Source of the DNA: Chiloscyllium plagiosum
Taxonomy: Eukaryota
NCBI RefSeq assembly: GCF_004010195.1
Contig: NC_057718.1
Location: forward strand, 92,206,044-92,270,043
Length of the DNA stretch: 64,000 bases
Direction: 5' to 3'
Below are positions 1 through 62,355 of the stretch, in pieces; the first letter of the stretch is position 1, and each line of letters opens with the position of its first letter. The translations under genes were made by a program, and so were the position numbers. The notes beneath the pieces are model-generated. The model was not told the origin of the DNA. It worked only from the letters and a program-made list of their open reading frames with translations, and searched no databases.

Positions 1-10
1 CTGCCTTTAT

Positions 11-138
11 TCCTGATGAAGGGCTTTTGCCCGAAATGACGATTTTACTGCTCCTCGGATGCTGCCTGAACTGCTGTGCTCTTCCAGCACCACTAATCCA
101 GAATCTGGTTTCCAGCATCTGCAGTCATTGTTTTTACC
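11..138 (+). mobile_element. Penelope-like element 3' end/pseudo-LTR (family A) beginning with a hammerhead motif
   Basis: ctgatga-a-gggc-tttt-gccc-gaaa followed by ctcggatgctgcctgaactgctgtgctcttccagcac...ccagcatctgcagtc. The same sequence forms the 3' end of the GIY-YIG-encoding copy at 43561-43690. Confidence 0.85.
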
Positions 139-10165: not shown

Positions 10166-10208
10166 ACGTAAAAAGCTTTTTGTATATTTTACTATATATC
10201 AATCAAGG

Positions 10209-10434
10209 AGAAAGTGAGGACTGCAGATGCTGGAGATCAGAGCTGAAAATGTGTTGCTGGAAAAGCGCAGCAGGTCAGGCAGCATCCAAGGAGCAGGCTA
10301 ATTGACGTTTCAGGCATAAGCCCTTCTTCAGGCATAAGCCTTCCTGAAGAAGGGCTTATGCACGAAACATCGATTCTCCTGCTTCTTGGATGCTGCCTGA
10401 CCTGCTGCGCATTTCCAGCAACACATTTTCAGCT
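10209..10434. mobile_element. Inverted pair of Penelope-like pLTRs (family A) with 17-bp TSD
   Basis: Arms 10241-10332 and 10343-10434 are near-perfect reverse complements. ctatatatcaatcaagg is repeated at 10192-10208 and 10433-10449. Confidence 0.92.
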
Positions 10435-12582: not shown

Positions 12583-12650
12583 ACCTCCAAAAGAAGTAGA
12601 TCAATTATATATGGCCTAAGATTTGAGAGTGTTACTAATGCATAACTGTC

Positions 12651-12684
12651 ACCTCAGATCCACTGTAACCTCAGATCCACTGTA
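12651..12684. repeat. Perfect 17-bp tandem duplication
   Basis: acctcagatccactgta x2. Confidence 0.95.
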
Positions 12685-12746
12685 ACTTAAACCTTCAAAC
12701 TCCCAGCAACTCATGCTGTTGGTTTTCTTGTCTGTTCTTCACTTTG

Positions 12747-12877
12747 AAGAAAATGAGGACTGCAGATGCTTGAGATCAGAGTTGAAGAATGTGGTGATGG
12801 GAAAGCACAGCCGGTCAGGCAGCATTCGAGGAGTAGGAGAATCGACGTTTCGAGCATAATTCCTTCATCAGGAATGA
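12747..12877 (-). mobile_element. Solo Penelope-like pLTR unit (family A) with 10-bp TSD
   Basis: cttcactttg at 12737-12746 and 12878-12887. Hammerhead core on the minus strand at about 12844-12871. Confidence 0.88.
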
Positions 12878-13384
12878 CTTCACTTTGTACAAGGAAACAT
12901 TTCATTTGCAAGATCTTTCATTTGCATGATCTTTTAAATTTATTGTGTGGTGTGGGAGTTAGCTACATATAAAAAATTTGCAAATTGGCAGTCTTAGGAA
13001 ACACTTAAAGAATCATTTAATTAAGAACAGAGCTTTAATTAAACAGAATGTTTCTTAACTAAAAGATACAATATGCCAATTTTTACTGGAACAACTATCA
13101 ATAAGTTTGCAACTGTAAAACACACAATACACTATAGCATGAGATTTGAATATACCTTGCTGTCACATTTATGACAATGTTAAGACTACAACTGGGGTAA
13201 TGCACATCATAGAGATTTATAACTAGATTAGTGAATATGGTGGCAACATTTTATGTACTATTTTCAGTAAAATTATGCCTTCTTGTCAGATTATGGTTTT
13301 AAAATAACTTGGTTCTTTCAGTTACCAAATTTTGCCACTGCTGGTATTAATGGTGGACATATGTGTTTTTGTGATATTCCCATT

Positions 13385-17218: not shown

Positions 17219-17525
17219 GCGGGGCAGCACGGTGGCTCACTGGTTAGCACTGCTGCCTCACAGCGCCAGGGACCCTGGGTCGATTCTAGCCTTGGGCCAC
17301 TGTCTGTGTGGAGTTTGCACATTCTCCCCATGTCTGCGTGGGTTTCCTCTGGGTGCTCTCGTTTCCTCCCATGGTCCAAAGATGTGCAGATCAGGTGAAT
17401 TGGCTGGGCTAAATTGCCCATAGTGTTAGGTCCATTGGTCGGGTAAATGTAGGGTAATGGGTCTGGATGGGTTACTCTTCGGAGGGTCGGTGTGTGTGGT
17501 TGGGCCAAGTGGCCTGTTTCCACAT
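17219..17525 (+). mobile_element. HE1-type V-SINE; its tail (gggaatctaatcta) is displaced to 18067-18082 by a CR1 insertion
   Basis: A box tggctcactgg, B box ggtcgattct, V core gtctgtgtggagtttgcacattctcccc...ccaaagatgtgcag. Confidence 0.93.
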
Positions 17526-18066
17526 AGAGCCATAGTCATAGAGATGTACAGCATGGAAACAGACCCTTCAGTCCAACCTGTCCATGCCGACCAGATATCC
17601 CAACCCAATCTAGTCCCACCTGCCAGCACCCGGCCCATATCCCTCCAAACCCTTCCTATTCATATACCCATCCAAATGCCTCTTAAATGTTGCAATTGTA
17701 CCAGTCTCCACCACATCCTCTGGCAGCATATTCCATACACATACCACCCTCTGCATGAAAAGGTTGCCCCTTAGGAGTCTTTTATATCTTTCCCTTCTCA
17801 CCCTAAACCTATGCCTTCTAGTTCTGGACTCCCCGACCCAGGCAAAAGACTTTGTCTATTTATCCTATCCATGCCCCTCATAATTTTGTAAACCTCTATA
17901 AGGTCACCCCTCAGCCTCCGATGCTCCAGGGAAAACAGCCCCAGCCTGTTCAGCCTCTCGCTATAGCTCAAATCCTCCAAACCTGCCAACATCCTTGTAA
18001 ATCTTTTCTGAACCCTTTCAAGTTTCACAACATCTTTCCGATAAACAGGAGACCAGAATTGCACGC
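17526..18066 (-). mobile_element. CR1/HER1 LINE 3' end, 5'-truncated, inserted in a SINE
   Basis: Minus ORFs VQFWSPVYRKDVVKLERVQKRFTRML...LRGDLIEVYKIMRG and WNMLPEDVVE. Confidence 0.93.
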
Positions 18067-18094
18067 GGGAATCTAATCTAATGTTATACAATAA

Positions 18095-18390
18095 AAACAT
18101 TGCCATCTGTAAGAAGGGAAATGTTAAACTTCAATGGCAGGCAAAATGTAATGCGGAGAAATCTTAAATGATTCATTTTGCTAGGAAAAATGGGGAGAGG
18201 CAACATGAAACAAAGGTTACAGTTCGAAAGTGGGTGCAGGAGCAGATGCACCTGGGAATATATGTATACAAACCACTGAAGGTGATAGGCAGTTGAGAAC
18301 ATGCTTTAAAAAAGTACAGGATTCTGGGCTTTTGAAATAGGTACATACCATAGATGCAGTAAGCAGGAAGGTTATAATAAACATTAATAA
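18095..18390 (+). mobile_element. Old CR1 ORF2 fragment
   Basis: Degenerate WQ...NAEK...IHFARKN and DLGIYV-like motifs. Confidence 0.55.
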
Positions 18391-19644
18391 AATAAAATCC
18401 TAGCCAACCTCTTTCACAGTGTCACTGAAAGTACATAAGTTATGATGTATCAAGTTGTTAAAGAGTGAAGTGCCAGAGAGATAAATTGCCAGCTGAGTTT
18501 GGGTTTGATGCCAAGTTGGGTTGGTGCAAGCAAGTGGATAGGGTGTCTAGGGGTTGGAGTTAGGGTTTTCGAGGGAGGGGTGGCTTCAAGTTGGTATGGG
18601 TCCAGGGTAGGTTGGGGGAGTTTTGGTTCAGATTGAAGGAAGGATTCAGTTAAGAAATTTGTCAGAAGCTAGAACAAATTTTTAATAATCTAATTTTTCT
18701 GAAGTAATTATTTACTTAACTAAAGTGGAACTCTTCAAATTTTCTGGTTCAAGTGAGCACTTTCGGAGGATTCCAGGCATAGCGGAATTGTCTAATGGTA
18801 CCTTCAATTTTCCAGAGTCTTCAGTGTCTGCTATGATGGGAATGTTACAAGGTCCCTCAACACAAGTCACATCCACACCGCAGAAATGACTGTCAGGCCA
18901 TCAGAAAGTCTAGGCAATATTATCAGTCATTGTCACCTGCTATTGGGAGACTTTCCTACATGCACGTGATCTGATAATTTTTCTTTCAATAGCATGAGAC
19001 AATATGTCCAAAGGATGTAAAGTGCTTTGGGACACACAATGGTTGTGAATGGTGCTATATAAATGCAAGTCTTTCCTTTTATTTCCCCAGAGTCATTTGT
19101 TTGCATGTATTTGGTCAGACTGTAGTTCTACAAATTGAATAGAAAATTATCTGATCAGATTTCAATCTAATGGTAACACACCCACTCTTATCTAAGATAG
19201 AATTATATACACTATTATTTCAATTTCAAATCTTCCTGTTTTATTTGGGATTTGTGCACCTCTCCTAGTTGAGGGGCACGAAATGGGGACCATTTGCTGT
19301 CTTTCTTTTGGAATCTAAAATTTCATGGGATTTGTTTTGTTACCCTTGAACAGAAAAACTTGCTGGGGCAATTTCAGGTGAATAAACTTCGAGTATGCGA
19401 GGGAAACTCAGCAGGTCTGGCAGCAGTTGTGGAGAGAGAAATAGAGTTACATTCCGAGTCTGGTATGAGTCTTTTTCAGTACTGTCACATGAAGCCAGGA
19501 GTCACAGGTAGGCCCAGCAAATTTCCTTCGCAAAAGGATATTAGTGAACTTGGGAGGCTTTTGTGACAATCAATGATAGCTTCACACATACCCTTGCTGG
19601 GGCTGGCTGTCAATCCTCGACTTCTTTATTAATTAAATGCAATG

Positions 19645-26980: not shown

Positions 26981-27544
26981 CGTAATGTTAATTTGCTTGA
27001 TCTCCCAGCTGAAACTGACTGACCTGGCATAAGTTTACAGCTTTTCCTGGAAAAGCAAGTCTTATGGTGGAAGTCAAGAAGAAAGCTGCTCTTGGAAAAT
27101 TAATGAATGCAACTAACATCTTGTCTCAGTTCCCAGAACTAGCATCAGGATGTGACAGTGTGACAATCATCTGAACAGAAACATCAGCAGATCAGGCAAT
27201 GGATGGATGAAGGCAGACATACCCCGGAATTTGGGGTATTCAAACTGGATGGTCATGGCAACAAAAAGTACTTCTTGGAAATTATAAATCATTGGAATTG
27301 CAGAGAAATCAAAGGCCTTATTCTTAAAGGCAGGATGATTGTAACTACTCAAAGTTTGTGTAAACATATTTTGCCCATAATTCATGTGGAACATCCCAGT
27401 GGTAAGGTGTGCAAACAAAGCCTTTATGATTCGATAATGACCATGTTTGAATCTGGAACTAAATAACCTGATGGAAAAATTGCCTTTAACCTTTCATTTC
27501 TTAACACAAATGATGTGCAAAAAATTCCAACTAACACCTGATTT

Positions 27545-27632
27545 ACTGAAGAAACTGAGCAGGTCTGGCAGCATCTGTGGAGAAAAAACAGAGTTAACAT
27601 TTTGAGTTCACTGACTTTTCATCAGAACTGTT
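27545..27632 (-). mobile_element. Penelope-like pLTR fragment (family B)
   Basis: gcaggtctggcagcatctgtggaga...gagttaacattttgagttcactgacttttcatcagaact. Confidence 0.65.
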
Positions 27633-28228: not shown

Positions 28229-28324
28229 ATTCCTGAAGAAGGGCTTATGCCCGAAACGTCGATTCTCCTGTTCCCTGGATGCTGCCTGACCTGCTGCGCT
28301 TTTCCAGCAACACATTTTCAGCTA
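28229..28324 (+). mobile_element. Penelope-like pLTR unit (family A), young
   Basis: Nearly identical to the arm at 10343-10434, with CpGs intact. Abuts a CR1 tail at 28180-28228. Confidence 0.88.
28231..28262 (+). ncRNA. Minimal hammerhead ribozyme motif (best-preserved copy)
   Basis: tc-CTGAAGA-a-GGGC-ttat-GCCC-GAAA-CGTC-ga: CUGANGA and GAAA core boxes, 4-bp stem II, palindromic ACGU in place of stem III, GUC triplet. Confidence 0.75.
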
Positions 28325-32420: not shown

Positions 32421-33466
32421 AAGCCATCATTTTCCCACGTATTTGCTGCACTTGTCCTCCTAGATGGTGGTATTTGTGTGTTCGGAAGGTGCTGTCTAAA
32501 GAGTTTTGATGAATTCCTGCATCTTGTAAATGGTACACACTTCATTTTGGTGATGGGGAGACTGAATATTGGAGGTGTGAGATGGGGTTCCAATCAAGTG
32601 GGCTACTTTGTCCTGGATGGGCTACTTTGTCCAATGTTCTTGAGCATTGTTTGAACTGCATTTTTCCCAGGCAAGTGGAGAGTATTCCATTGCATTCCGA
32701 TTTGTGCCTTGTTGACATTGGACAGGTTTTGGGGAGTGCGGAGGTAAGTTACACAATGCAGGATACCTAGCCTCTAATCTTCTTTTGTAGCCACTATATG
32801 ACTTGTTCAATTCAGTTTCTGATGAATGGTAACTACCGGATGTTGATATGGGGGATTAAGCAATGGCAATGCCATTGAATGTCAAGGGATGATGATTAGA
32901 TTCTCTCTTCTTGGAGATAATCATTGCCTGGCATTTGTATGGCATGAATATTGCTTGTCATTTGCCAAATCTGGATATTATCCAGTTCTTATTTTGTTCA
33001 AACTTGGACTGTTTTAGTATCTGAGAAGTTGTGAATGGTGTTGAACATGATATAATCATTGGCGAACATCCCCACTTCTGACCTTATGATGGAGGGAGGG
33101 TCATTGAGAAACAGAAGATGGTTGGGCCTCTGACACTACCTGAGGCATTCCTGTAGAGATGTCCTGGAGCTAAGACAATTGACCTCCAATAACCACAACC
33201 ATCTTCGTTTAAGTCACATATGATCCCAACCAGTGGAGAATTTTCCGTGATTCCCATTGACTTCAGTTTTGCCAGGGCTCCTTGATGCTACACTCAATCA
33301 ATTGTCGCCTCAATTGCAAGAGTAATCATTCTCACCAACCTCTGGAATTCAACTCTTTGCCCATGTTTAAATCAAGGCTGTAATAAAGTCAGGAGCTGCA
33401 TAACCCTGGCAGAATCTAAACTGAGGATTAGTGAGCAAGTTACTGTTAAGCAAGTGCTGATTTATG

Positions 33467-33551
33467 AAGAGCATATGCTCAAAATGTTGACTGTCTTGCT
33501 CCTCGGATGCTGCCTGACTGGCTGTGCTTTTGCAGCACCACACTTTTCGAC
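33467..33551 (+). mobile_element. Solo Penelope-like pLTR fragment with imperfect 12-bp TSD
   Basis: tgctgatttatg (33455-33466) and tgctgattcatg (33552-33563) flank family A pLTR sequence. Confidence 0.8.
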
Positions 33552-33884
33552 TGCTGATTCATGGCACTATTGATGAACCCTTCCATTATTTTGCTTATGC
33601 AAGCGAGTCAATTGATGAGACAGTTATTGTCTGGTCTGGATTTGTTCTTTTTTGTTAAAAAGGATGCCTGGGCAATTTCCACATTGTCGAGTAGTTGCCA
33701 GGATTGTAACTGTACTGAAACAGTTTGGCTAGGAGAGCGGCAAGTTCTGGAGCACAAGCTTCAGTCCTATTTCCAGAGTGTTGTTTGGGCCCACAGTATC
33801 TAGCCATAGTATTCCGATATCACATAAAGTGAATCGAATTGGCTGAAGACCGGCATCTATGATGCCGGGAACCTCTGGAGCAGA

Positions 33885-34331
33885 TGAAAAAGGGCTTATG
33901 CCTGAAACATCGATTCTCCTGCTCCTCCGATGCTGCATGATTAGATTCCCTACAGTGTGGAAACAGGCCCTTCGGCCCAACCAGTCCACACCGACCCTCC
34001 GAAGAGCAACCGACCCAGACCCATTCCCCCCTAACTAACGCTCCTAACACTATGGGCAATATAGAACAGCCAATTCACTTAACCTGCACATCTTTGGGCT
34101 GTGGGAGGAAACCAGAGCACCCGAAAGAAACCCACGCAGACACGGGGAGAATGTACAAACTCCACACAGACAGTCGCCTGAGGCTGGAATCGAACCCGGG
34201 TCCCTGGCGCTGTGAGGCAGCAATGCTAACCACTGAGCCACCGTGTCACCCCGTTGTCCTGATCTGCTGTGGTTTTCCAGCACCACACTTTCGACTCTGA
34301 TCTCCAGCAACAGCAGTCCTCACTTTCTCCT
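33885..34331 (+). mobile_element. Penelope-like pLTR unit split by an HE1 SINE
   Basis: pLTR sequence at 33885-33938 resumes at about 34255-34331. Degenerate TSD aacctctggagcaga (33870-33884) and aacttctagagaaga (34332-34346). Confidence 0.8.
33939..34252 (-). mobile_element. HE1-type V-SINE, full length
   Basis: Head ggggtgacacggtggctcagtgg...gggttcgattcc, V core, tail gtagggaatctaatc. Confidence 0.93.
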
Positions 34332-35563: not shown

Positions 35564-36155
35564 TCAAGACGAGAGGGCATAGTTTTAAAGTAAGATGCGA
35601 GATTTAAGAAATACATGAGGGACAAATGTTTTACACAGAGGATTGTTTGCGAGTGGAATGAACTTCCAAAGGAAGTGACGGACGTGGGCACAGTTACAAC
35701 TTTAAAAGGCACTTAGAGAAGTGGCATGATAGCTCAGTGGTTAGCACTACTGCCTCACAGCACCAGGGTCCAGGGTTCAATTCCCACCTCGGGGCTGTGT
35801 GGTGTTTGCACATTCTCACCGTGTCTGCTTGGGTTTCCTCCGGGTGCTCCGGTTTCCTCCCACAGTCCAAAGATGTGCAGGTTAGGTGAATTGGCCACGC
35901 TAAATTGCCCATAGTGATAGGTGCATTAGTCAGGGGTACATGTAGGGGAATGGGTCTGAGTGGGTTGCTCTTCGGAGGGTCAGTGTGGACTTGTTGGGCC
36001 TGTTTCCACACTGTAGGTAATCTAATAAATTCATGAATAGGAACTGTTTGAGGGATATTGGTCAGGAACAGGCAGGTGGGACTAGTTTAGTTTGGGATTA
36101 TGTTTGGCATGGACTGGTTGGACTGAAAAGTCTGCTTCCATGCTGTATGACTCTG
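35564..36155 (+). mobile_element. CR1 3' end interrupted by an HE1 SINE
   Basis: CR1 acaactttaaaaggcacttaga continues as catgaatagg...gggatat after the SINE. Confidence 0.85.
35721..36025 (+). mobile_element. HE1-type V-SINE
   Basis: tagctcagtgg, gggttcaattcc, V core, tail gtaggtaatcta. Confidence 0.92.
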
Positions 36156-40019: not shown

Positions 40020-40468
40020 GTTGCCTTTGGAATACTGTATTTGATTCCAGTCTCTTTATTATAGAAAAGATATTGTTAAATTTGAAAGGGTTCAGAAAAG
40101 ATTTACAAGAATGTTGCCATGATTGGAGTGTTTGAGCTATAGGGAGAGGCTGAATAGGATGGGGCTGTTTTCCCTGGAGTGCCAGAGGGCATGGGTTTGA
40201 GGTGAGAGGGGAAAGATTTAAAAGGGACCTAAGGGGCAATTATTTCACAGCAGAGGGTGGTACATGTGTAGAATAAGCTACCAGTGAAAGTGGTGGAGTC
40301 TGGTACAATTTACAACATTTAAAAGACATTCTGATTATGAATAAAAAGGGTTTAGAGGGATATGGGCCAAATGCTGGCAAATAGAACTAGCTTAATTTAG
40401 GATATCCGATCGATGTGGACCAATGGGTCTGTTTCCGAGCTGTACATCTCTATGAATATGACTCTATA
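40020..40468 (+). mobile_element. CR1/HER1 LINE 3' end with internal deletion
   Basis: LEYCI...RKDIVKFERVQKRFTRML and a tail ending ctctatgaatatgactctat. Confidence 0.9.
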
Positions 40469-42092
40469 ACCACGTTTAAAGTTGATAAATCACAGCCACA
40501 AAGCACCATTACAATGATCCAGGTCTCCAGACAGTTGAAGAACCAGATATAGCCTCAAAGACATTTGACGGGACTTTTGGAAGTCCCAACTCATTGACTA
40601 CCCAGTAATTGCTCCAGCAATTTTAACTTCCAGTGGGCAATTTCCATTTATTCGGAAGCCTTTGAAAAAATCTACACATCTAAGTTAGCATCGGAAACCT
40701 CAAATGGTTCTTACACCTAATAGTTAGTGAGGAAAAGTCAGAGGATTAAAACTTCTGTATATCCTGGCTAACTATAAGGTTGATTCTCACTCCCATAACT
40801 TACACTAACCCCCATTCACCTGTGCTAATTCCCTCTCAATACCTGACCCTCCAACCTCAAATACAACCTGGTTATCTGATGAAACCCTGTCACCTTCCCT
40901 CCTCACCCTTACCACTTCTTTCTCTCTTCTTCAATGATTCCCTGGCAGTGAAAAGTTGAAGCTAACATGTAGGCTTTCCTGAGAACCCATTAGTATATTG
41001 TCAGAAGTCTTTGAGAGAAAATTAACCTGCTGATTTACTCGATAGACTGTTGAGATGTGGTAATTTAGAACAGAGCACAATTTTACATTAGTTTCCTTTG
41101 AGTTGAACACAGTATTACATTAAGAGAACCTTTTACCTTTTAAAAGAAACCCACTGAACTACAGCTTTTACAATTTCACTATTAATGGGGAGAAAGGCTT
41201 GGGACAGAAAAGTCAGCCAGCATTAAGTAGAATAGTTATTTTGTTTCAGAAAATGTCACATGTTCTCCAAATTTTTGTCATCAATGTTGGAGTGTCGAAA
41301 TAGCAAAAGTGCTGCCTCAAGATAGGCAGACTGCCTAGTGTGGCCCCCATTCTAGTCTAGACTTCAAAGGAAACAACCAGAAAATCAAGGCTACTTCCAT
41401 TGTAACACCACACCTGAATGTTTTTATTTGGATTCTTTTGCTCTGCAGATCCTTGGGTTTTCAAATTCTTCCTTTATTTTGTAACGTTTCTTTCTGGAGT
41501 CGGAGCACAATTTGATTTGGCAGCAGAATAAATTTGCTTGGCCTTTGGTCTTGTGCCATGTTAATGGATCCCAATGACAATAATGATAGAAACACTAAAT
41601 TTATTCAGCATGCCTGGACTACAAAGAGGAATATATAGGTCAGGAATGTGCTGTTTTTGGGGATAAAAATAGGGGGAAGGGGATGGATTTCAGCTGACCA
41701 GCAGCCTGCCCTTCAAGGATTCTTAAAACTTTGCTTAATCAGAAATTGGTTTAGTTAATGTTTTGGGTTCCCTCAGCAGCCAACTAAACCAATTATTACA
41801 AAAACATACATTTCTGAAGAAACTCAGTGTGTCTAGAAGCATCCGTGGAGAGTAAGCGAGTTAACATTTCAGGTCCAGTGACCCTTCTTCAGTACTGATT
41901 GAGGTTAGGAAAAGGTTGGGAAAAACGCTGAAGTTGGAGTGTTAGGAGTAAACAGTAGGTGGAGATGGAGCCCAGAGAGAGAATAGCAGTTGGACAGACA
42001 AAAGATTAGGTCATGGTCAGTCTGGGAGAATCAATAGCTGCTAATTGGGAACATTAGTACCTAACAATGTGTAGGTTGCAGTAGCAGTTGTA

Positions 42093-42868
42093 GTCGAAAA
42101 GTGTGGCGCTGGAAAATCAGAGCAGGTCAAGCAGCATTTGAGGATCAGGAAAGTCAATGTCTCGGGCATAAGTCCTTCATCAGGAATGTGGAAGGGAAGG
42201 AAGATGGACTGGTAGGACAGGTCAGGAGGGCAGTGCTGAGTTGGAGGGTTGGATCTGGGATGAGGTGGAGGAAGGAGAAATTTGGAAACTGGTGAAGTCA
42301 ATGTTGATGCCATGTGGTTGAATGAGTCCCAAGGTAGAAGATGAGGCATTCTTCTTCCAGTTGTCGGGTGGCTAGGATTTGGTGGTGGAGGAGACCCAGG
42401 ACTTGCATGTCCCTCGGGGAGTGGGAGGGGGAGTTGAACTGTTCAGGCACAGGGCAGTGGGGTTCTTTGGTGCATGTTCCCTGAAACGTTCCACAAGTTG
42501 GCATCCTGTCTCTCCAATGCAGAGGAGGCCACATCGAGAGCAACGGACATAGTAGATTAGGTGGGTGGATACACAGGAAAATCTCCGCCTGATGTGAAAA
42601 GACCCTTTGGAGCCTTGGATGGAGGTAAGGAGGGTTGTGAGCACAAGTTTTACACCTCTTGCGGTGTAAGGGAAGGTGCTGGGTGTAGAGGGTGACTTGG
42701 TGGGATGGGGGGGTGTTTGGCCGTGGACCCAATGAGGGAGTCACGGAGAGAATGGTCTCTGTGGAACGCAGATAGGTGTGGGGAGGGAAATATACCTTTG
42801 GTGGTGGAGTCTGATTGTAGGTGGCGGATAATGCGCTGTATCCAGAGATTAGTAGGGTGGAAGGTGAC
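42093..42868 (-). mobile_element. Penelope-like element (family A), left inverted arm with GIY-YIG remnant
   Basis: IQGSKGSFHIRRRFSCVSTHLIYYVRCSRCGLLCIGETGCQLVERFREH and RQLEEECLIFYLGT; pLTR at 42093-42186. Confidence 0.9.
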
Positions 42869-43690
42869 GTCTGGGATAGAACTGCCTTCGTTAGGTACAT
42901 ACTCCCGGCCAACCCACCCTCTACACCCGGAACCTTCCCTTGCTGCTGCAAGAGGTGTAAACCTGTGACCGCCCCTCCCACCTCAACTCCATCCAAGGTC
43001 CCAAAGGATCCTTCCAGACCTGGCAAAGATTTTCCTGCACATCCAAACACCTCATCTACTGTGTCTGTTGCTCTTGATGTGGTCACCTTTACATCGGGTA
43101 GACAGGATGCCAACTCACGGATGTTTCAGGGAACATCTCTGAGACACACGCACCAAATAACCCCACTGCCCTGTGGCTGACCACTTAAACTCCCCCTCCC
43201 CGAAGGACATGCACCTCCTGGGCCTCTTCCACCGCCTAATCGAAGCCACCCAATGCCTGGAGGAAAACTGTCTCATCTTCCGCCTTGGGACCTTTCAACC
43301 ACACGGCTTCAACATTGACATCATTAGTTTTCAAATCTCCCCTCCCCTCATCTCATCCCAGATCCAACCCTCCAACTCAGCACCACCCTGTTGACCTGTC
43401 CTATCTGTCAATCTTCCTTCCCACCTATCTGCTCCACCCTCCCCAGCAACCTATCACTATTACCACCCCCACCTGCATCCACCTTTGACTTTCCCACCCA
43501 CCTTCTCCCCAATCCCACACCCAGCCCTCGATTTATCTCTGAGCCACTGTCCCCCAACACTCCTGATGAAGGGCTTAAACCCAAAACATCAACTCTCTTG
43601 CTCCTCGGATGTTGCCTGACCTGCTGTGCTTTTCCAGCACCACACTTCTAGACTCTGACTCTCCAGCATCTGCAGTCCTCATTTTCTCTC
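42869..43690 (+). mobile_element. Penelope-like element (family A), right arm
   Basis: PGTFPCCCKRCK, ADHLNSPS...LEENCLIFRLGTFQPHGFNID; pLTR with hammerhead remnant at 43561-43690. Confidence 0.9.
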
Positions 43691-49061: not shown

Positions 49062-50750
49062 TGGAATCATAGAATAGTTACAGCATAAACAGAAACCATT
49101 CAGACTTCTGAATCCATGTCATTTCCATGTAAGAACAATTTAATTCGTCCTGTTCACTGTGCTTTCCCTATAGTTCTGGAATTCTTCACTTTTCAGATTC
49201 ATATTCAATTCTCTTTAAAAGCCATCATTGAATCTGCCTCCAACACGCTCTCAAGCTTGCAATACAGATTACAACCACTGGCTTCCTGATAAACTTTCCT
49301 TTGTGCCGACTTTTGTTCTTTTGCCAATCATCTTAAATCTGTATCTTCTGGTTCTTGACCCTTCAATCATTTGAAACAATTTCAATCCACACTGTCCAGG
49401 ACCCCTCTTGATTTTGAAAACATCTATCAAATCTCCTCTCCAATTTCTCTTCACTAAGGAAACAACTCCAACTTCTACAATCCAATTTCCTCATCCACAT
49501 AACTGAAATCCCTCCCTTCCAGAACCATGGGTGGCATGGTGGCACAATGGTTCGCACTGCTGCCTCACACCGCCAGAGACCCGGGTTCAATTCCCACCTC
49601 AAGCAACTGTCTGTGTGGGGGTTGCACATTCTCCCCGCGTCTGCATGGGTTTCCTCCGGGTGCTCAGGTTTCCTCCCACAGTCCAAAAAAACAAATGTGC
49701 AGGTTAGGTGAATTGGCCATGCTAAATTGCCCGCAGTGTTAGGTGAAAAGGTAAATGTATGGGAATGGGTCGAGGTGGGTTGCTCTTCAGAGGGTCGGTG
49801 TGGACTTGTTGGGCCGATGGGCCTGTTTCCACATTGTAAGTAATCTAAATTCTTGTCAATCTTTTCTGAATCCTGATCAAAGCCTTCACATTTGTCCTAA
49901 AATATTGTATCCAGAACTGGATCCAATATCCAATTGAAGCTAACACAGAGTTTTATAAAAAATAATTGGTGAGAAAAAGAGATTTGCTGTTAAAGGTATT
50001 TTTCTTGCACTTATCAGGACAAATGCAAGAATACCAAATTGTAAAGGGTACACCAACTTATACTGCATGCAAAAAAGTATACTGATTGATTGGTTGAATT
50101 CTGATGGGATAAGGCATTCAATGGAGAATATACCAAGGAACAGGTGCATCATAGGCTTCTTATAAAAGTTCATCAATGTTTCCCTTATCTTTTGTATTCT
50201 ATGCTTCTACTTCCGAAGCTCAGATCCTGCAAATGTTTTAAACTATCCGCCCTGTCATCTTTAGCAATGTGCGTTTATATACCCCAAGACCCATTTGCTC
50301 CTAGCTCCATTTTAGGAATGCACTCTTTACTTTATACTACTTGTTCTCATTCCTCTTCCCAAAACATTTCACACATCTCTACATTCAATTTCATCTGCTA
50401 GGTATCCGCTCATCCCACCAACCAGTTTATGTTCTCTTGAGGTCTATCGCAATTCACACTTTAAAGTGTTATGCAAGTGTTGAAACTATTTCCCATTCAC
50501 CCAAGTCTAGGTTATCAATTTGTATTGGGAGAAATAGTGGTCATAATACTAAATCCTGGAGAATTTCACTGTTTATCTTCTTCCAATCTGAAAAATAAGC
50601 ATGTCACTCGGCCAACACTGTAAACATACTGCCCTCTCCCTTTAATTTCATGGACTTCAACTAACAAACTTATTTTGAAGCCCTTATCTTTCACAAGTCT
50701 ATAAACCATGTCAATTACTCTGATGCATACTCCCTATTACATCACCAAAC
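49062..50750 (-). mobile_element. Old CR1 LINE remnant, fragmented, with an HE1 SINE inside
   Basis: Minus RGDLIDVFKI, LDIGSSSG and DLDLGE-like motifs; tail atcatagaatagttacagca. Confidence 0.7.
49529..49848 (+). mobile_element. HE1-type V-SINE
   Basis: tggcacaatgg, gggttcaattcc, V core, tail gtaagtaatcta. Confidence 0.92.
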
Positions 50751-53892: not shown

Positions 53893-53964
53893 GTGTGTGC
53901 TGGTGGGAAAGCACAGCAGGTCAGGCAGCATCCGAGGAGCAGGAAAATTGACGTTTTGAGCATG
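53893..53964 (-). mobile_element. Penelope-like pLTR fragment (family A)
   Basis: gtgtgctggtgggaaagcacagcaggtcaggcagcatccgaggagcaggaaaattgacgtttt. Confidence 0.8.
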
Positions 53965-57447: not shown

Positions 57448-58686
57448 GATGTATCCTAGGATTATGTGGGAAGCAAGAGAGGAAATTGCAGAGCCTTTGG
57501 CAATGATCTTTTCGTCTTCACTGTCAANNNNNNNNNNNNNNNNNNNNNNNNNNNNNNNNNNNNNNNNNNNNNNNNNNNNNNNNNNNNNNNNNNNNNNNNN
57601 NNNNNNNNNNNNNNNNNNNNNNNNNNNNNNNNNNNNNNNNNNNNNNNNNNNNNNNNNNNNNNNNNNNNNNNNNNNNNNNNNNNNNNNNNNNNNNNNNNNN
57701 NNNNNNNNNNNNNNNNNNNNNNNNNNNNNNNNNNNNNNNNNNNNNNNNNNNNNNNNNNNNNNNNNNNNNNNNNNNNNNNNNNNNNNNNNNNNNNNNNNNN
57801 NNNNNNNNNNNNNNNNNNNNNNNNNNNNNNNNNNNNNNNNNNNNNNNNNNNNNNNNNNNNNNNNNNNNNNNNNNNNNNNNNNNNNNNNNNNNNNNNNNNN
57901 NNNNNNNNNNNNNNNNNNNNNNNNNNNNNNNNNNNNNNNNNNNNNNNNNNNNNNNNNNNNNNNNNNNNNNNNNNNNNNNNNNNNNNNNNNNNNNNNNNNN
58001 NNNNNNNNNNNNNNNNNNNNNNNNNNNNNNNNNNNNNNNNNNNNNNNNNNNNNNNNNNNNNNNNNNNNNNNNNNNNNNNNNNNNNNNNNNNNNNNNNNNN
58101 NNNNNCGTTCATTAGCAGAGGGATTTAATTCAAGAGTCGTGAAGTGATGTTGCAGCTGTACAGGAATTTGGTTAGGCCACAGTTTGAGTACTGTGTGCAG
58201 TTCTGGTCGCTTCACTTTAGGAAAGATGTGGAAGCTTTGGAGAGGGTGCAGAGAAGATTTACCAGGATGTTGCCTGGAATGGAGAATAGGTCATACGAGG
58301 ATAGGTTGAGAGTGCTAGGCCTTTTCTCATTGGAATGGCGAAGGATGAGGGGTGACTTGATAGACGTTTATAAGATGATCAGGGGAATAGATAGAGTAGA
58401 CAGTCAGAGACTTTTTCCCGGGGTACAACAGAGTGGTACAAGGGGACATGAATTTAAGGTGAAGGGTGGAAGGTATAGGGGGGATGTCAGGGGTAGATTC
58501 TTTACCCAGAGAGTGGTGGAGGCATGGAATGCGCTGCCTGTGGGAGTGGCAGAGTCAGAATTATTGGTGACCTTTAAGCGGCAATTGGATTGGTACATGG
58601 ATAGGTGCTTAAGCTAGACAAATGTTTCGGCACAACATCGTGGGCCGAAGGGCCTGTTCTGTGCTGTATTGTTCTATGTTCTATGA
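57448..58686 (+). mobile_element. Young 5'-truncated CR1/HER1 LINE spanning the assembly gap
   Basis: MYPRIMWEAREEIAEPLAMIFSSSL before the gap; open frame LYRNLVRPQFEYCVQFWS...FKRQLDWYMD after it; (gttctat)n tail. Confidence 0.88.
57528..58105. other. Assembly gap (578 N)
   Basis: Run of n characters. Confidence 1.
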
Positions 58687-59029: not shown

Positions 59030-59365
59030 CACAGAATCCTTGCAGTGTGGAAACAGACCATTCAGCTAAGCTGGCCCACACTGATCCTCTAAAAAGCATT
59101 CTACCCAGACCCATCCCCCTACATCTCCCATGGCTAACCCACCTAGCATGCACATCCCTGAACATTATGGGAAATTTAGCATAGCCAGTCCACCTAACCT
59201 GTACATCTTTGGATTGTGGGAGGAAACTGGAGCACTTGGCAGAAACAGATGCAGACACAGGAAGAACATGCAAACTCCACACAGACAACTGCCCAAGGGT
59301 AGAATCAAACCTGGCTCCCTGGCACTGTGAAGTGGCAGTGCTAACCACTGAGCAACCATGCTGTC
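59030..59365 (-). mobile_element. HE1-type V-SINE nested in CR1
   Basis: Reverse-complement head and V core; CR1 aaccatggt continues as ctaaagaggttaaagatag. Confidence 0.9.
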
Positions 59366-60999
59366 CTAAAGAGGTTAAAGATAGAATCAAATTGAAAGAC
59401 AGAACATATAACGTGCCAATGTCTAGTGGTAAACCAAGTATTGGGAAAAATTTAAAATCCAATGAGAGATGACCAAAAAGAAAGAGGGGAAAAATAACTA
59501 TGAGGAAATAAACTATGAGGATAAACTAGCAAGTAAAATAAAAGCAGACAAGAACTTTTTCGGTATTTAAAAAGGAAGTGAGAGTCCAAACTAAACATTG
59601 ACCACTTAGAAAATGAGTCAGAGGAAATAATAATGAGACAGCAGGAAATTGCAGATGAGTTAAATAAGTATGTTCTATTAGTCTTTACAGTAGATGTCAC
59701 AAATAGCATTCCAAAAATATTAAATAATCGAGGGGCTAATTGGGCAGAAGGAAATTGTATCACTTAGAGAAGTTGTACTCAGGAAACTAATGGTGCTAAA
59801 AGCTGTTTTACCTCTTGGATCTGATGGGATGCATTCAAGGATTTTAAAGGAAGTAGCTACTAAGATTGTGGATGCACTGGTAGTGTTCTTCCAACAATCT
59901 TTAGATCCTGGAAAAGTCACAGAGGTTTGGAAAACTGCCAGTGTAATACCCTTATTACAAAAGGGAGGAAGAAAGAAAAAGGTAACTTATAGGTCAGTTA
60001 AAATAATATCTTTCATAATATCTATTATGAAACATGTCATAGCAGGTTATTTACAAATCCATAACATGATCAAGCAAACTAATCATGCCTTCATGAAGGG
60101 CAAACCGTGCCCAAAACATTATGAGCCTTCTTTGAGGAGAAAGCAAGCAATACAGATCAAAGGGAATGAGGAGTTGTCATGTATTTTGAGTTCCAATAGC
60201 GTTCAATACTATTCCATGCAAGACTACTTAATAAAATAAGAACTGCTGGTGTTAGGATTAGAATAGAGGCATTTTCAGGTGGTAATCTGAAACTAATATA
60301 ATGCCACAAGAATTACTGCTGGGCCACATTTACTTACAACGTATACTTTTTCACTACGTTTGCAGAAGACAATACATTGGGGGGAAGGCAGGTAGTGAAT
60401 AAAAATATGGAGATCTTGTTAAAGCTATACCAGACACTTGTCAGACCACACCTGGACTACTGCAAACAGTTTTGGTCCCCCTATCTAAGAGAGATATCCT
60501 ATCACTGGAAGCAGTCCAGAGAAGGTTCATCATGCCAATTCTGACAATCGACTGATTTTGTTCCAGGTTGAATAGATTGGAATGGTACTCATTGAAGTCT
60601 AGAAGATTGAGAGGAGAACTTATTGAAACATATAAGATTCTTGGGGGGGGGGGGGGGGGGTGGAGGCTTGACAGTGTAAATGCAGAGATGTTGTTTTCCT
60701 TTGTAGGAGAGTCCAAGATAAGAAGGCATAATCTCAGAGTAAGAGATCACACATTTAAAACCAAGATGAGGAGGAATTTCTTCTCTCAGAGGGCAGTGAA
60801 TTTGTAGAATTCTTTACCACAGAGGGCTGTCCAGGTTGGATCAATAAGTATATTCAAGGCTGAGATAGACAGACTTTAATCAAGAGTTATGGTGATTAAG
60901 GCAGGAAGGTGGAGTGAAGGATAACCAGAGCAGCCATAATTTCATTGAACAGCAGACCAAACTCAATGGCCTACTTCAGCTTCCATATCTTATGATCAC

Positions 61000-61765: not shown

Positions 61766-62067
61766 CTATCAAGAATTTTTTTAAAAATCACTCAACTCTA
61801 GTTCTGCTGGGTAGGACACATCATTCACAAGCTTAACACCAGATTCACAAAGAAATGTTACTACTTTGAAATTGGCATTGGCCAAAGCTCTCTCCAATTG
61901 TTATGGTGACTGAGCAGAACTCTGAGTGGTCTGAATGGCACTTTGCATCCTTTGAGTGGAAGATATAAAGGCAGTATTTTTTTCACAATTTATTTATTGA
62001 AGATTAAAAGTGTGCATTTATATTACTTGACAGTTACAGGTATTCCACCTGCCAAAATAAACAAAAT

Positions 62068-62355
62068 TGGTGACTCAGTCGTTAGCACTGCTACCACACA
62101 TCGTCAGGGACCTGGATTCGATTCCAACCTTGGGCAACTGTCTGTGTGGAATTTGCACATTCTCCCGGTGTCTGCATGAATTTCCTCCCACAGTCCAGAT
62201 ATATGCCGGTTAGGTGGATTGGCCATGATAAATTGCCCATAGTATCCAGGGATGGGTAAGTTAGCCATGGGAAATACGGGTTACAGGGTTAAGGTGGGTT
62301 TGGGTGGGATGCTGTTCAGAGTGGCCTGCTAGCACACTGTAGGGATTCTATGATC
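62068..62355 (+). mobile_element. HE1-type V-SINE
   Basis: gtgactcagtcgttagcac, gattcgattcc, V core, tail gtagggattctatga. Confidence 0.9.

Follow-up and report, generated by a model that had tools for sequence, protein, structure and literature searches.

Short hammerhead-bearing insertions in Chiloscyllium plagiosum are pLTR copies of a Penelope-like element and share a 5' edge

The 64,000-nt stretch of the Chiloscyllium plagiosum genome (3.56 Gb) analysed here, hereafter the window, contains inserts of 90-130 bases that begin within a few nucleotides of a hammerhead ribozyme core, which raises the question of why they begin there and whether they are elements in their own right. A sequence-only reading of the window had proposed a non-autonomous, retrozyme-like family, arising either from a short ribozyme-bearing RNA mobilised in trans or from reverse transcription that terminates or switches template at the ribozyme fold. 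We found that these inserts are short copies (stubs) of the pLTR of a GIY-YIG Penelope-like element (PLE), an element of a known kind, and we consider it likely that they are short because the reverse transcriptase (RT) starts 90-125 bases inside the RNA and runs off a presumably capped 5' end at A(-3). Published sources are cited for those parts of them that were accessible.

Positions are numbered with the C of CUGAUGA as +1, which is window position 12871 in the insert that raised the question. This insert is 131 nt long, starts 5 nt before CUGAUGA and is bounded by an exact 10-bp target-site duplication (TSD), CTTCACTTTG (Table 1); the G at its start is part of the TSD and thus a target base. 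Its hammerhead motif consists of CUGAUGA, one extra A, helix II (12863-12852, with two of four pairs broken), GAAA and an ACGU palindrome, and cleavage is predicted after 12844 (+28); an Rfam scan of the window gave no match at the gathering score. Short tandem duplications (17- and 16-bp units, at 12645-12686 and 12900-12934) lie within 100 bp of the insert, and no link between these two flanking duplications and the insertion was seen.

Table 1. Features of the insert under study and of related copies in the window
Feature	Position	Strand	Basis
TSD copy, element's 3' end	12737..12746	.	exact 10-bp repeat
TSD copy, element's 5' end	12878..12887	.	exact 10-bp repeat
Solo pLTR stub of Penelope-like element, -5 to ~+125, older subfamily S1, 89% to S1 consensus	12747..12877	-	
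Optional 30-40-nt tail between preferred 3' ends ~+90 and ~+125	12747..12780 (limits approximate)	-	bimodal 3' ends
Minimal type I hammerhead motif	12844..12871	-	sequence
Inr-like TCATTC; A(-3) at 12875, putative transcription start of source RNA	12872..12877	-	5'-end peak, G excess
Head-to-head inverted pair, young subfamily S2, 17-bp TSD (10192, 10433)	10207..10434	.	
Solo untailed S2 stub, start A(-3) after a G, no TSD found	28229..28323	+	
Untailed solo stub of S1, +4..+97; its ends overlap a 12-bp repeat with one mismatch	33464..33558	+	
Short tailed copy split by SINE-like insertion at ~33944-34257	33885..34330	+	
Long inverted insertion, decayed GIY-YIG endonuclease remnants	42092..43688	.	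same element as stubs
S3 copy cut at -11 by assembly gap at window start	1..126	+	
Short copy, +15..+83, no TSD found	53895..53963	-	

Several of the copies from which the sequence-only reading had drawn its cluster of starts needed reinterpretation. The two listed near 10332 and 10342 are the arms of one inverted insertion, a tailed arm (-6..+125, minus strand) and an untailed arm (-2..+91, plus strand); that at 33885 is a single SINE-split copy; that at 1823 is a member of a more diverged relative (40 bits); and that at 11 carries upstream element sequence to -11, where the assembly gap cuts it. The long insertion with GIY-YIG remnants, flanked by a 15-bp TSD with one mismatch (42073, 43691), connects the stubs to an autonomous element. 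More diverged hammerhead-bearing PLE ends of other families lie on the minus strand at 27544-27631, 41814-41893, 1718-1826 and 19400-19436; the ends at 27631 and 41893 are distinguished by their helix II and by AGT-type bases ahead of the core, and the one at 27631 has better helix I pairing. The window also holds an abundant tRNA-like SINE, which we take to be of the shark HE1-like family, at 17220-17439, 33944-34257 (inside a PLE stub), 35701-36000, 49511-49850, 59033-59366 and 62060-62253, and LINE 3' remnants, presumably of CR1 type, seen in translated ORFs at 627-1960, 17534-18130, 40026-40430 and 58129-58617. One assembly gap, of 578 N, occupies 57530-58107 of the window and another includes the base just ahead of position 1; such gaps are frequently inside or beside PLE copies, and full-length elements are hidden by them.

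Copies of the parent element were found by searching the genome with the long inverted insertion 42092-43688. In long copies the unit stands downstream of a GIY-YIG coding remnant and a C/T-rich 3' UTR, an order of endonuclease (EN), 3' UTR and unit that is seen in 25 of 29 long loci, and it also precedes the ORF start in loci L301-L306; occurring both before the ORF and after the 3' UTR, the unit is the pLTR. The earlier suggestion that the pieces are PLE pLTRs made by the PLE RT and endonuclease is supported. Long copies match protein P0001 with 63% identity (E 2e-60), and the window remnant matches it at E 7e-21; P0001 in turn has Pfam matches to RVT_1 (E 0.008) and GIY-YIG (E 0.0003), neither of which reaches the curated cut-off of Pfam, and a Pfam search of the decayed genomic fragments alone gave no match. 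The named proteins nearest to the parent-element protein are shark proteins. A C-x4-C-x2-C motif precedes GIY-YIG in the RT-EN linker of P0001 and of the genomic copies; since a CX2-5CxxC zinc finger in this linker marks Neptune and Nematis (PMC8557442), the parent element would, by this motif, be of Neptune/Nematis type. An ORF with RT and C-terminal GIY-YIG, a pLTR, an optional tail and an inverted 5' copy, the features of EN+ PLEs, are all present. In the search for a gap-free full-length element, six of six candidates were rearranged or contained N gaps.

Three subfamilies, S1, S2 and S3 (77-83% alike, S2 the youngest), served as references. The hammerhead core CUGANGA/GAAA/NUH, helix II and a palindromic helix III are present in the consensus of all three, and an intact core is retained by 29 of the 39 short copies and by 32 of the 46 long ones. 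Helix I has three of four pairs and minimum-free-energy folds of the hammerhead do not give the active form, self-cleavage being a prediction only. Divergence is 0.029 in the core and 0.12 at downstream sites, a comparison that is confounded by subfamily differences and by the way copies were found and was therefore not used.

How the copies begin and end was then read from an unselected sample of 114 stretches of 10 kb at round coordinates (1,098,837 non-N bases), which contained 130 insertions with 168 arms, 20 of these censored by N, an edge or the reference end; arms under 40 bits in one analysis or 60 bits in another were dropped, and L222/L223 was counted once. There were 38 solo short copies, 39 short inverted pairs, 22 single long copies, 9 inverted insertions with a long arm, 8 same-strand chains and 14 censored insertions, which extrapolates to about 400,000 insertions in the genome, about 240,000 of them short (77/130). 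The inverted share, 48 of 130, is a lower bound, as some copies called solo conceal short inverted pieces. The rate of 5' ends is 0.031 per nt at -11..+15 (89 ends) against 0.0032 at -12..-400 (33 ends), a ratio of 9.7 (p 3e-33) that is 7.8 without inverted pairs and 12, 8 and 9 in the individual subfamilies. Resolved further, the rate per nt is 0.005 at +16..+45, 0.016-0.022 at +1..+15 (35 arms), 0.073 at -5..0 (41 of 168 arms), 0.040 at -6..-11 (14 arms) and 0.001-0.005 upstream of -11, with 0.0013 at -12..-25. The clustering of starts by the hammerhead core, first noticed in a handful of copies, is therefore confirmed genome-wide and lies far above chance; the ends do not decay smoothly along the element and peak at -5..0, so the boundary is indeed non-random. 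An alignment artefact at the C-rich linker was considered and rejected: the peak persists with three subfamily references, TSDs mark the same boundary and the exact-pattern counts given below are free of alignment. We did not use the 12,653 copies that reach -9 as a truncation rate, since upstream variants are missed, or contig-run depth profiles as copy numbers.

At the other side, the 3' ends of both short and long copies fall into two groups, at about +84-96 and +116-126; the tail that lies between them in PLEs has been described (PMC8557442, PMC11167929). A TSD of at least 8 bp was detected for 28 of 35 short inverted pairs, with a mode of 15, for 10 of the 37 solo short copies and for 5 of the 21 long copies standing singly; among mismatched-flank controls the figure is 9 of 544. 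Thus the TSDs first reported hold for the insert at 12747 and for the inverted pair with its 17 bp, but not as a general property of the solo copies, in the majority of which no TSD was detected.

Evidence on the nature of the 5' edge comes from the base before A(-3). The templated base at this site in S2 is C, which 23,664 exact genome-wide matches keep; in an exact genome-wide search with one S2 variant, 8,822 copies have a base other than C, and this is G in 5,322 (60%); part of this count stems from inverted junctions, at which the G may be contributed by the opposite arm (9 of 11 inverted loci). Counted by eye among the first 100 matches listed, G occurs 14 times one base downstream and 23 times one base upstream, and two bases upstream it makes up 38 of 100 purines among the matches listed (Fisher p 3e-9, 0.003 and 9e-7, respectively). 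Among copies with unique flanks, those starting at -3 have a preceding G in 10 of 17 cases and those starting at -2/-4 in 1 of 14 (p 0.007). Three of these ten Gs are untemplated, standing between TSD and element, and the rest are target bases, in most cases extended by 1-3 nt of additional microhomology, which is what annealing of a C-ending cDNA at such a site should give. Raw reads (X21; 46 reads) and contigs (X15; 20 contigs) also have a main unique-flank junction at A(-3) and a consensus G next to it, at the low overall consensus agreement expected for mixed flanks. In the older S1 and S3 the excess is weak, with 52 G to 48 A (p 0.01 when tested against 40% and 0.06 when tested against the -6 control), and the insert at 12747 is an S1 copy. 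A(-3) lies within TCATTC, a pyrimidine-A motif that we take to be Inr-like. Transcription starts within the pLTR are known from PLEs (PMC2377424), and an untemplated G is the accepted cap signature for L1 and SVA (PMC4859970). As to RNA itself, the one informative run had no shared molecule start or adaptor-type loose end, so that no RNA 5' end was seen. Nothing from run X22 aligned; X21 reads cross the unit in either direction but reveal no start site, and so give no evidence on expression.

Copies that carry ORF sequence start at the same edge (10 of 29 loci at -3..+9, read by eye). Of 56 discontinuities between same-strand pieces, in loci partly selected for ORF sequence, 18 lead to a unit starting at -7..+3, and ten of these 18 depart from ORF sequence. 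Most simply, the RT would have arrived at the end of the RNA and jumped from there, on a template that carried the ORF. Template switches, as the sequence-only reading allowed, do occur, but from the RNA end and not at the ribozyme fold. The inverted pairs are equally regular, with one tailed and one untailed arm in 27 of 29 classifiable pairs of the unselected sample (half expected, p 8e-7; 6 of 35 pairs were not classifiable by tail) and in 78 of 81 across all loci including selected ones. Because the untailed arm extends further 5' in 12 of 27 pairs, and a copy of the first cDNA could not gain a tail, a simple fold-back of that cDNA does not account for them. The arms of S2 pairs share the variant at +43 in 42 of 42 cases (50% expected), and arms differ by 3.3% within pairs against 6.1% between pairs, a similarity to which gene conversion or subfamily timing could also have led. 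A tail on one end only has been described before (PMC8557442, PMC3846280), with self-priming on an antisense template as the proposal of PMC3846280; the G before A(-3) points instead to a sense, capped template. Together with the anole data (PMC11167929), the pairs suggest that each target end primes at one of two start sites.

Could the stubs nevertheless propagate themselves? SINE-like trans-mobilisation, by the PLE protein, of a short RNA transcribed from solo copies would suit the large share of short insertions and the finding that pLTR sequences alone sufficed in a rotifer (PMC3846280), and a few small short-only groups are supported on the tree. Against it, the tree of 62 short and 47 long copies has 33 label changes compared with 35 after shuffling (88 columns only), no site separates the two classes (best p 0.04; Bonferroni 0.0006), their mean identity is the same (0.884 and 0.885), stub 5' ends are also found joined to ORF sequence, and, by analogy with the anole PLE, whose minimal RNA needs sequence past the priming sites (PMC11167929), the stubs would lack a required part. 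We therefore regard such mobilisation as improbable. As far as sequence comparison can tell, short and long copies interleave, and neither a separate family nor the lineage of its own with diagnostic variants that defines a SINE-like family finds support; the mutations private to short copies on which the retrozyme-like family would have rested were looked for, with limited power, in 109 rows and 88 columns and none appeared. Tandem arrays of the unit, also looked for, were absent from the window and from the sample insertions: 1 of 130 has adjacent same-strand arms and is not a unit tandem, and among 390 insertions three have such arms, none joined at +28/+29. This bears equally on a retrozyme cycle, in which hammerhead self-cleavage would give monomers or circles that are copied and inserted. 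The motif has the minimal dimer-type architecture of PMC4209133 and a few ends do fall at +29, but with 3 of 168 arms at +28..+30 there is no excess at the predicted cleavage site (p 0.41 against local background), which lies 3' of the peak, and the sequence-only reading was right that self-cleavage does not explain the boundary. Neither tandem units each with a hammerhead nor unit ends set by the cleavage site, as in non-LTR retrozymes, were found, and the probability of this cycle seems to us remote. Starts at +27..+29 occur in L192, L194 and L208 (one duplicated insertion), at L307:7462-7559 and in L076 and L099; a minor class from cleaved RNA starting near +29 is possible, and in the sample such starts are not above background.

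The remaining alternatives concern how the edge itself arises. If the RT stalled or switched template at the hammerhead fold of a longer RNA, the raised end rate at +6..+15 (0.016 per nt), inside helix II, and the use of the helix II palindrome as microhomology at many inverted junctions would be understandable; the ends should then lie at the 3' side of helix II (+20..+22), where 3 of 168 arms end, whereas the RT at the peak has already passed this helix (+9..+20). There is a cliff upstream of the peak, helix I has only three pairs out of four, and a position-specific G is not predicted by a stall. Termination at the ribozyme fold, as first envisaged, is thus not supported by the position of the ends, and we hold a stall there to be very unlikely. 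An RT can also add C at an uncapped RNA end. A defined but uncapped 5' end at -3, left by processing and extended by terminal transferase activity, would accordingly give the same edge and the same G, and DNA alone cannot distinguish it from a cap; the edge falls on the A of the pyrimidine-A motif in all three subfamilies, where no cleavage motif is present, and we judge processing to be unlikely. Post-insertion recombination of a full-length copy's pLTRs with each other, the route by which solo LTRs form, has been suggested for some solo pLTRs (PMC3846280) and would leave a -3..+125 unit with TSD and G, since full-length 5' pLTRs start near -3. It would require two events for each inverted pair whose arms are both short (39 of 130 insertions), only 2 of 130 insertions contain young-subfamily 5' ORF sequence, and stubs 97-100% identical to the consensus exist, which together leave recombination with very little probability.

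The run-off reading that we favour can be set out as follows. Pol II would start at A(-3) within TCATTC, and the GIY-YIG domain would make a staggered cut of about 15 bp, at which the RT, by analogy with the anole element (PMC11167929), would prime at about +90 or +125, where the 3' ends are observed. The cDNA would then reach the cap and gain a C, corresponding to the G observed on the sense strand. Joined to the other target end, such a strong-stop-like cDNA would give the solo copies that we observe; joined to a second cDNA, one that the opposite target end had primed at the other site, it would give an inverted pair with one tailed and one untailed arm; and by jumping elsewhere on the element RNA it would give partial tandems. 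The stub may thus be the first product of the cycle, comparable to strong-stop DNA, and the stubs are likely dead ends. Off-peak ends, the 14 arms at -6..-11 and 35 at +1..+15, need trimming, chance matches or several starts. A fuller model is possible, although we put it forward tentatively and find it rather doubtful: PLEs would rebuild their pLTRs by a retrovirus-like strong-stop step in which the cap-reaching cDNA jumps to the 3' repeat of the RNA, a protein dimer would use both start sites of a single RNA, priming one target end at each, and stubs and one-tailed pairs would be failed intermediates. If it were true, stubs and pairs would record a mechanism that the field lists as undefined, as the making of PLE pLTRs, tails and inverted ends is described (PMC8557442, PMC2377424). 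In any case the stubs provide constraints that can be counted: the 5' edge is fixed and bears a cap-type G, the 3' ends are fixed at two positions, and tailed arms pair strictly with untailed ones. The kind of element is already known; neither cap-bounded PLE stubs nor this end signature was found in the literature covered, which lacked most subscription journals and repeat databases.

Both arms of a pair here cover the same 90 nt, whereas the arms of L1 twin priming cover different parts of the RNA. Otherwise, full-length L1 and SVA share with the stubs an extra G at the RNA start, and in L1 twin priming, too, two-end priming gives inversion (PMC4859970). EN+ PLEs likewise have a pLTR, a 30-40-nt tail at one end only, an inverted 5'-truncated copy and TSDs, and in D. 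virilis Penelope and Chlamys transcription starts inside the pLTR, as it probably does here; their 5' truncation is given as variable in the accessible text, whereas 59% of the insertions here are cut at one place with a cap-type G, and the D. virilis start lies upstream of an intron ending at helix I, while the putative start here lies at helix I itself (PMC8557442, PMC3846280, PMC2377424). PAc, the Poseidon element of Anolis carolinensis, also has two internal RT start sites that define the tail; they lie about 110 nt downstream of the hammerhead, both strands are cut and extended, a dimer is predicted and hammerhead cleavage is not needed (PMC11167929). PAc belongs to Penelope/Poseidon, whereas the shark element has the Neptune/Nematis linker zinc finger, and in the accessible portion of that report the RNA 5' end is not mapped and run-off stubs are not discussed (PMC11167929). 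The minimal hammerheads of metazoan PLEs resemble those here in the extra base before helix II, the palindromic helix III and the short helix I, and are mostly single dispersed motifs with some close opposite-strand pairs, ascribed to truncated PLEs, as here; the same paper proposes cleavage and circles, whereas here the ends stand some 30 nt 5' of the site of cleavage (PMC4209133). Non-LTR retrozymes share the type I hammerhead, the relation to pLTRs and the many 'monomers', but are defined by tandem hammerhead units, whereas the stubs are solo or inverted (bioRxiv 10.64898/2026.07.22.740005). Dispersed hammerheads or 'retrozyme monomers' counted in large numbers in genomes of this sort may be by-products of PLE insertion.

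Some further features of the parent element were noticed around the hammerhead. In L302:1220-1300 (S2, +15 and beyond) the helix II loop supplies an ATG for a short frame, about 26 codons long, that lies upstream of the main ORF. The main ORF has its first in-frame ATG near +170; the ORF of the anole element itself begins at helix II. Upstream of the hammerhead, at about -40..-25, the S1-S3 consensus has a pyrimidine tract ending in CAG, like a 3' splice site, and in D. virilis Penelope an intron ends near the hammerhead. Finally, L304:3484-5111 is a 1.6-kb minisatellite with a 25/50-bp period.
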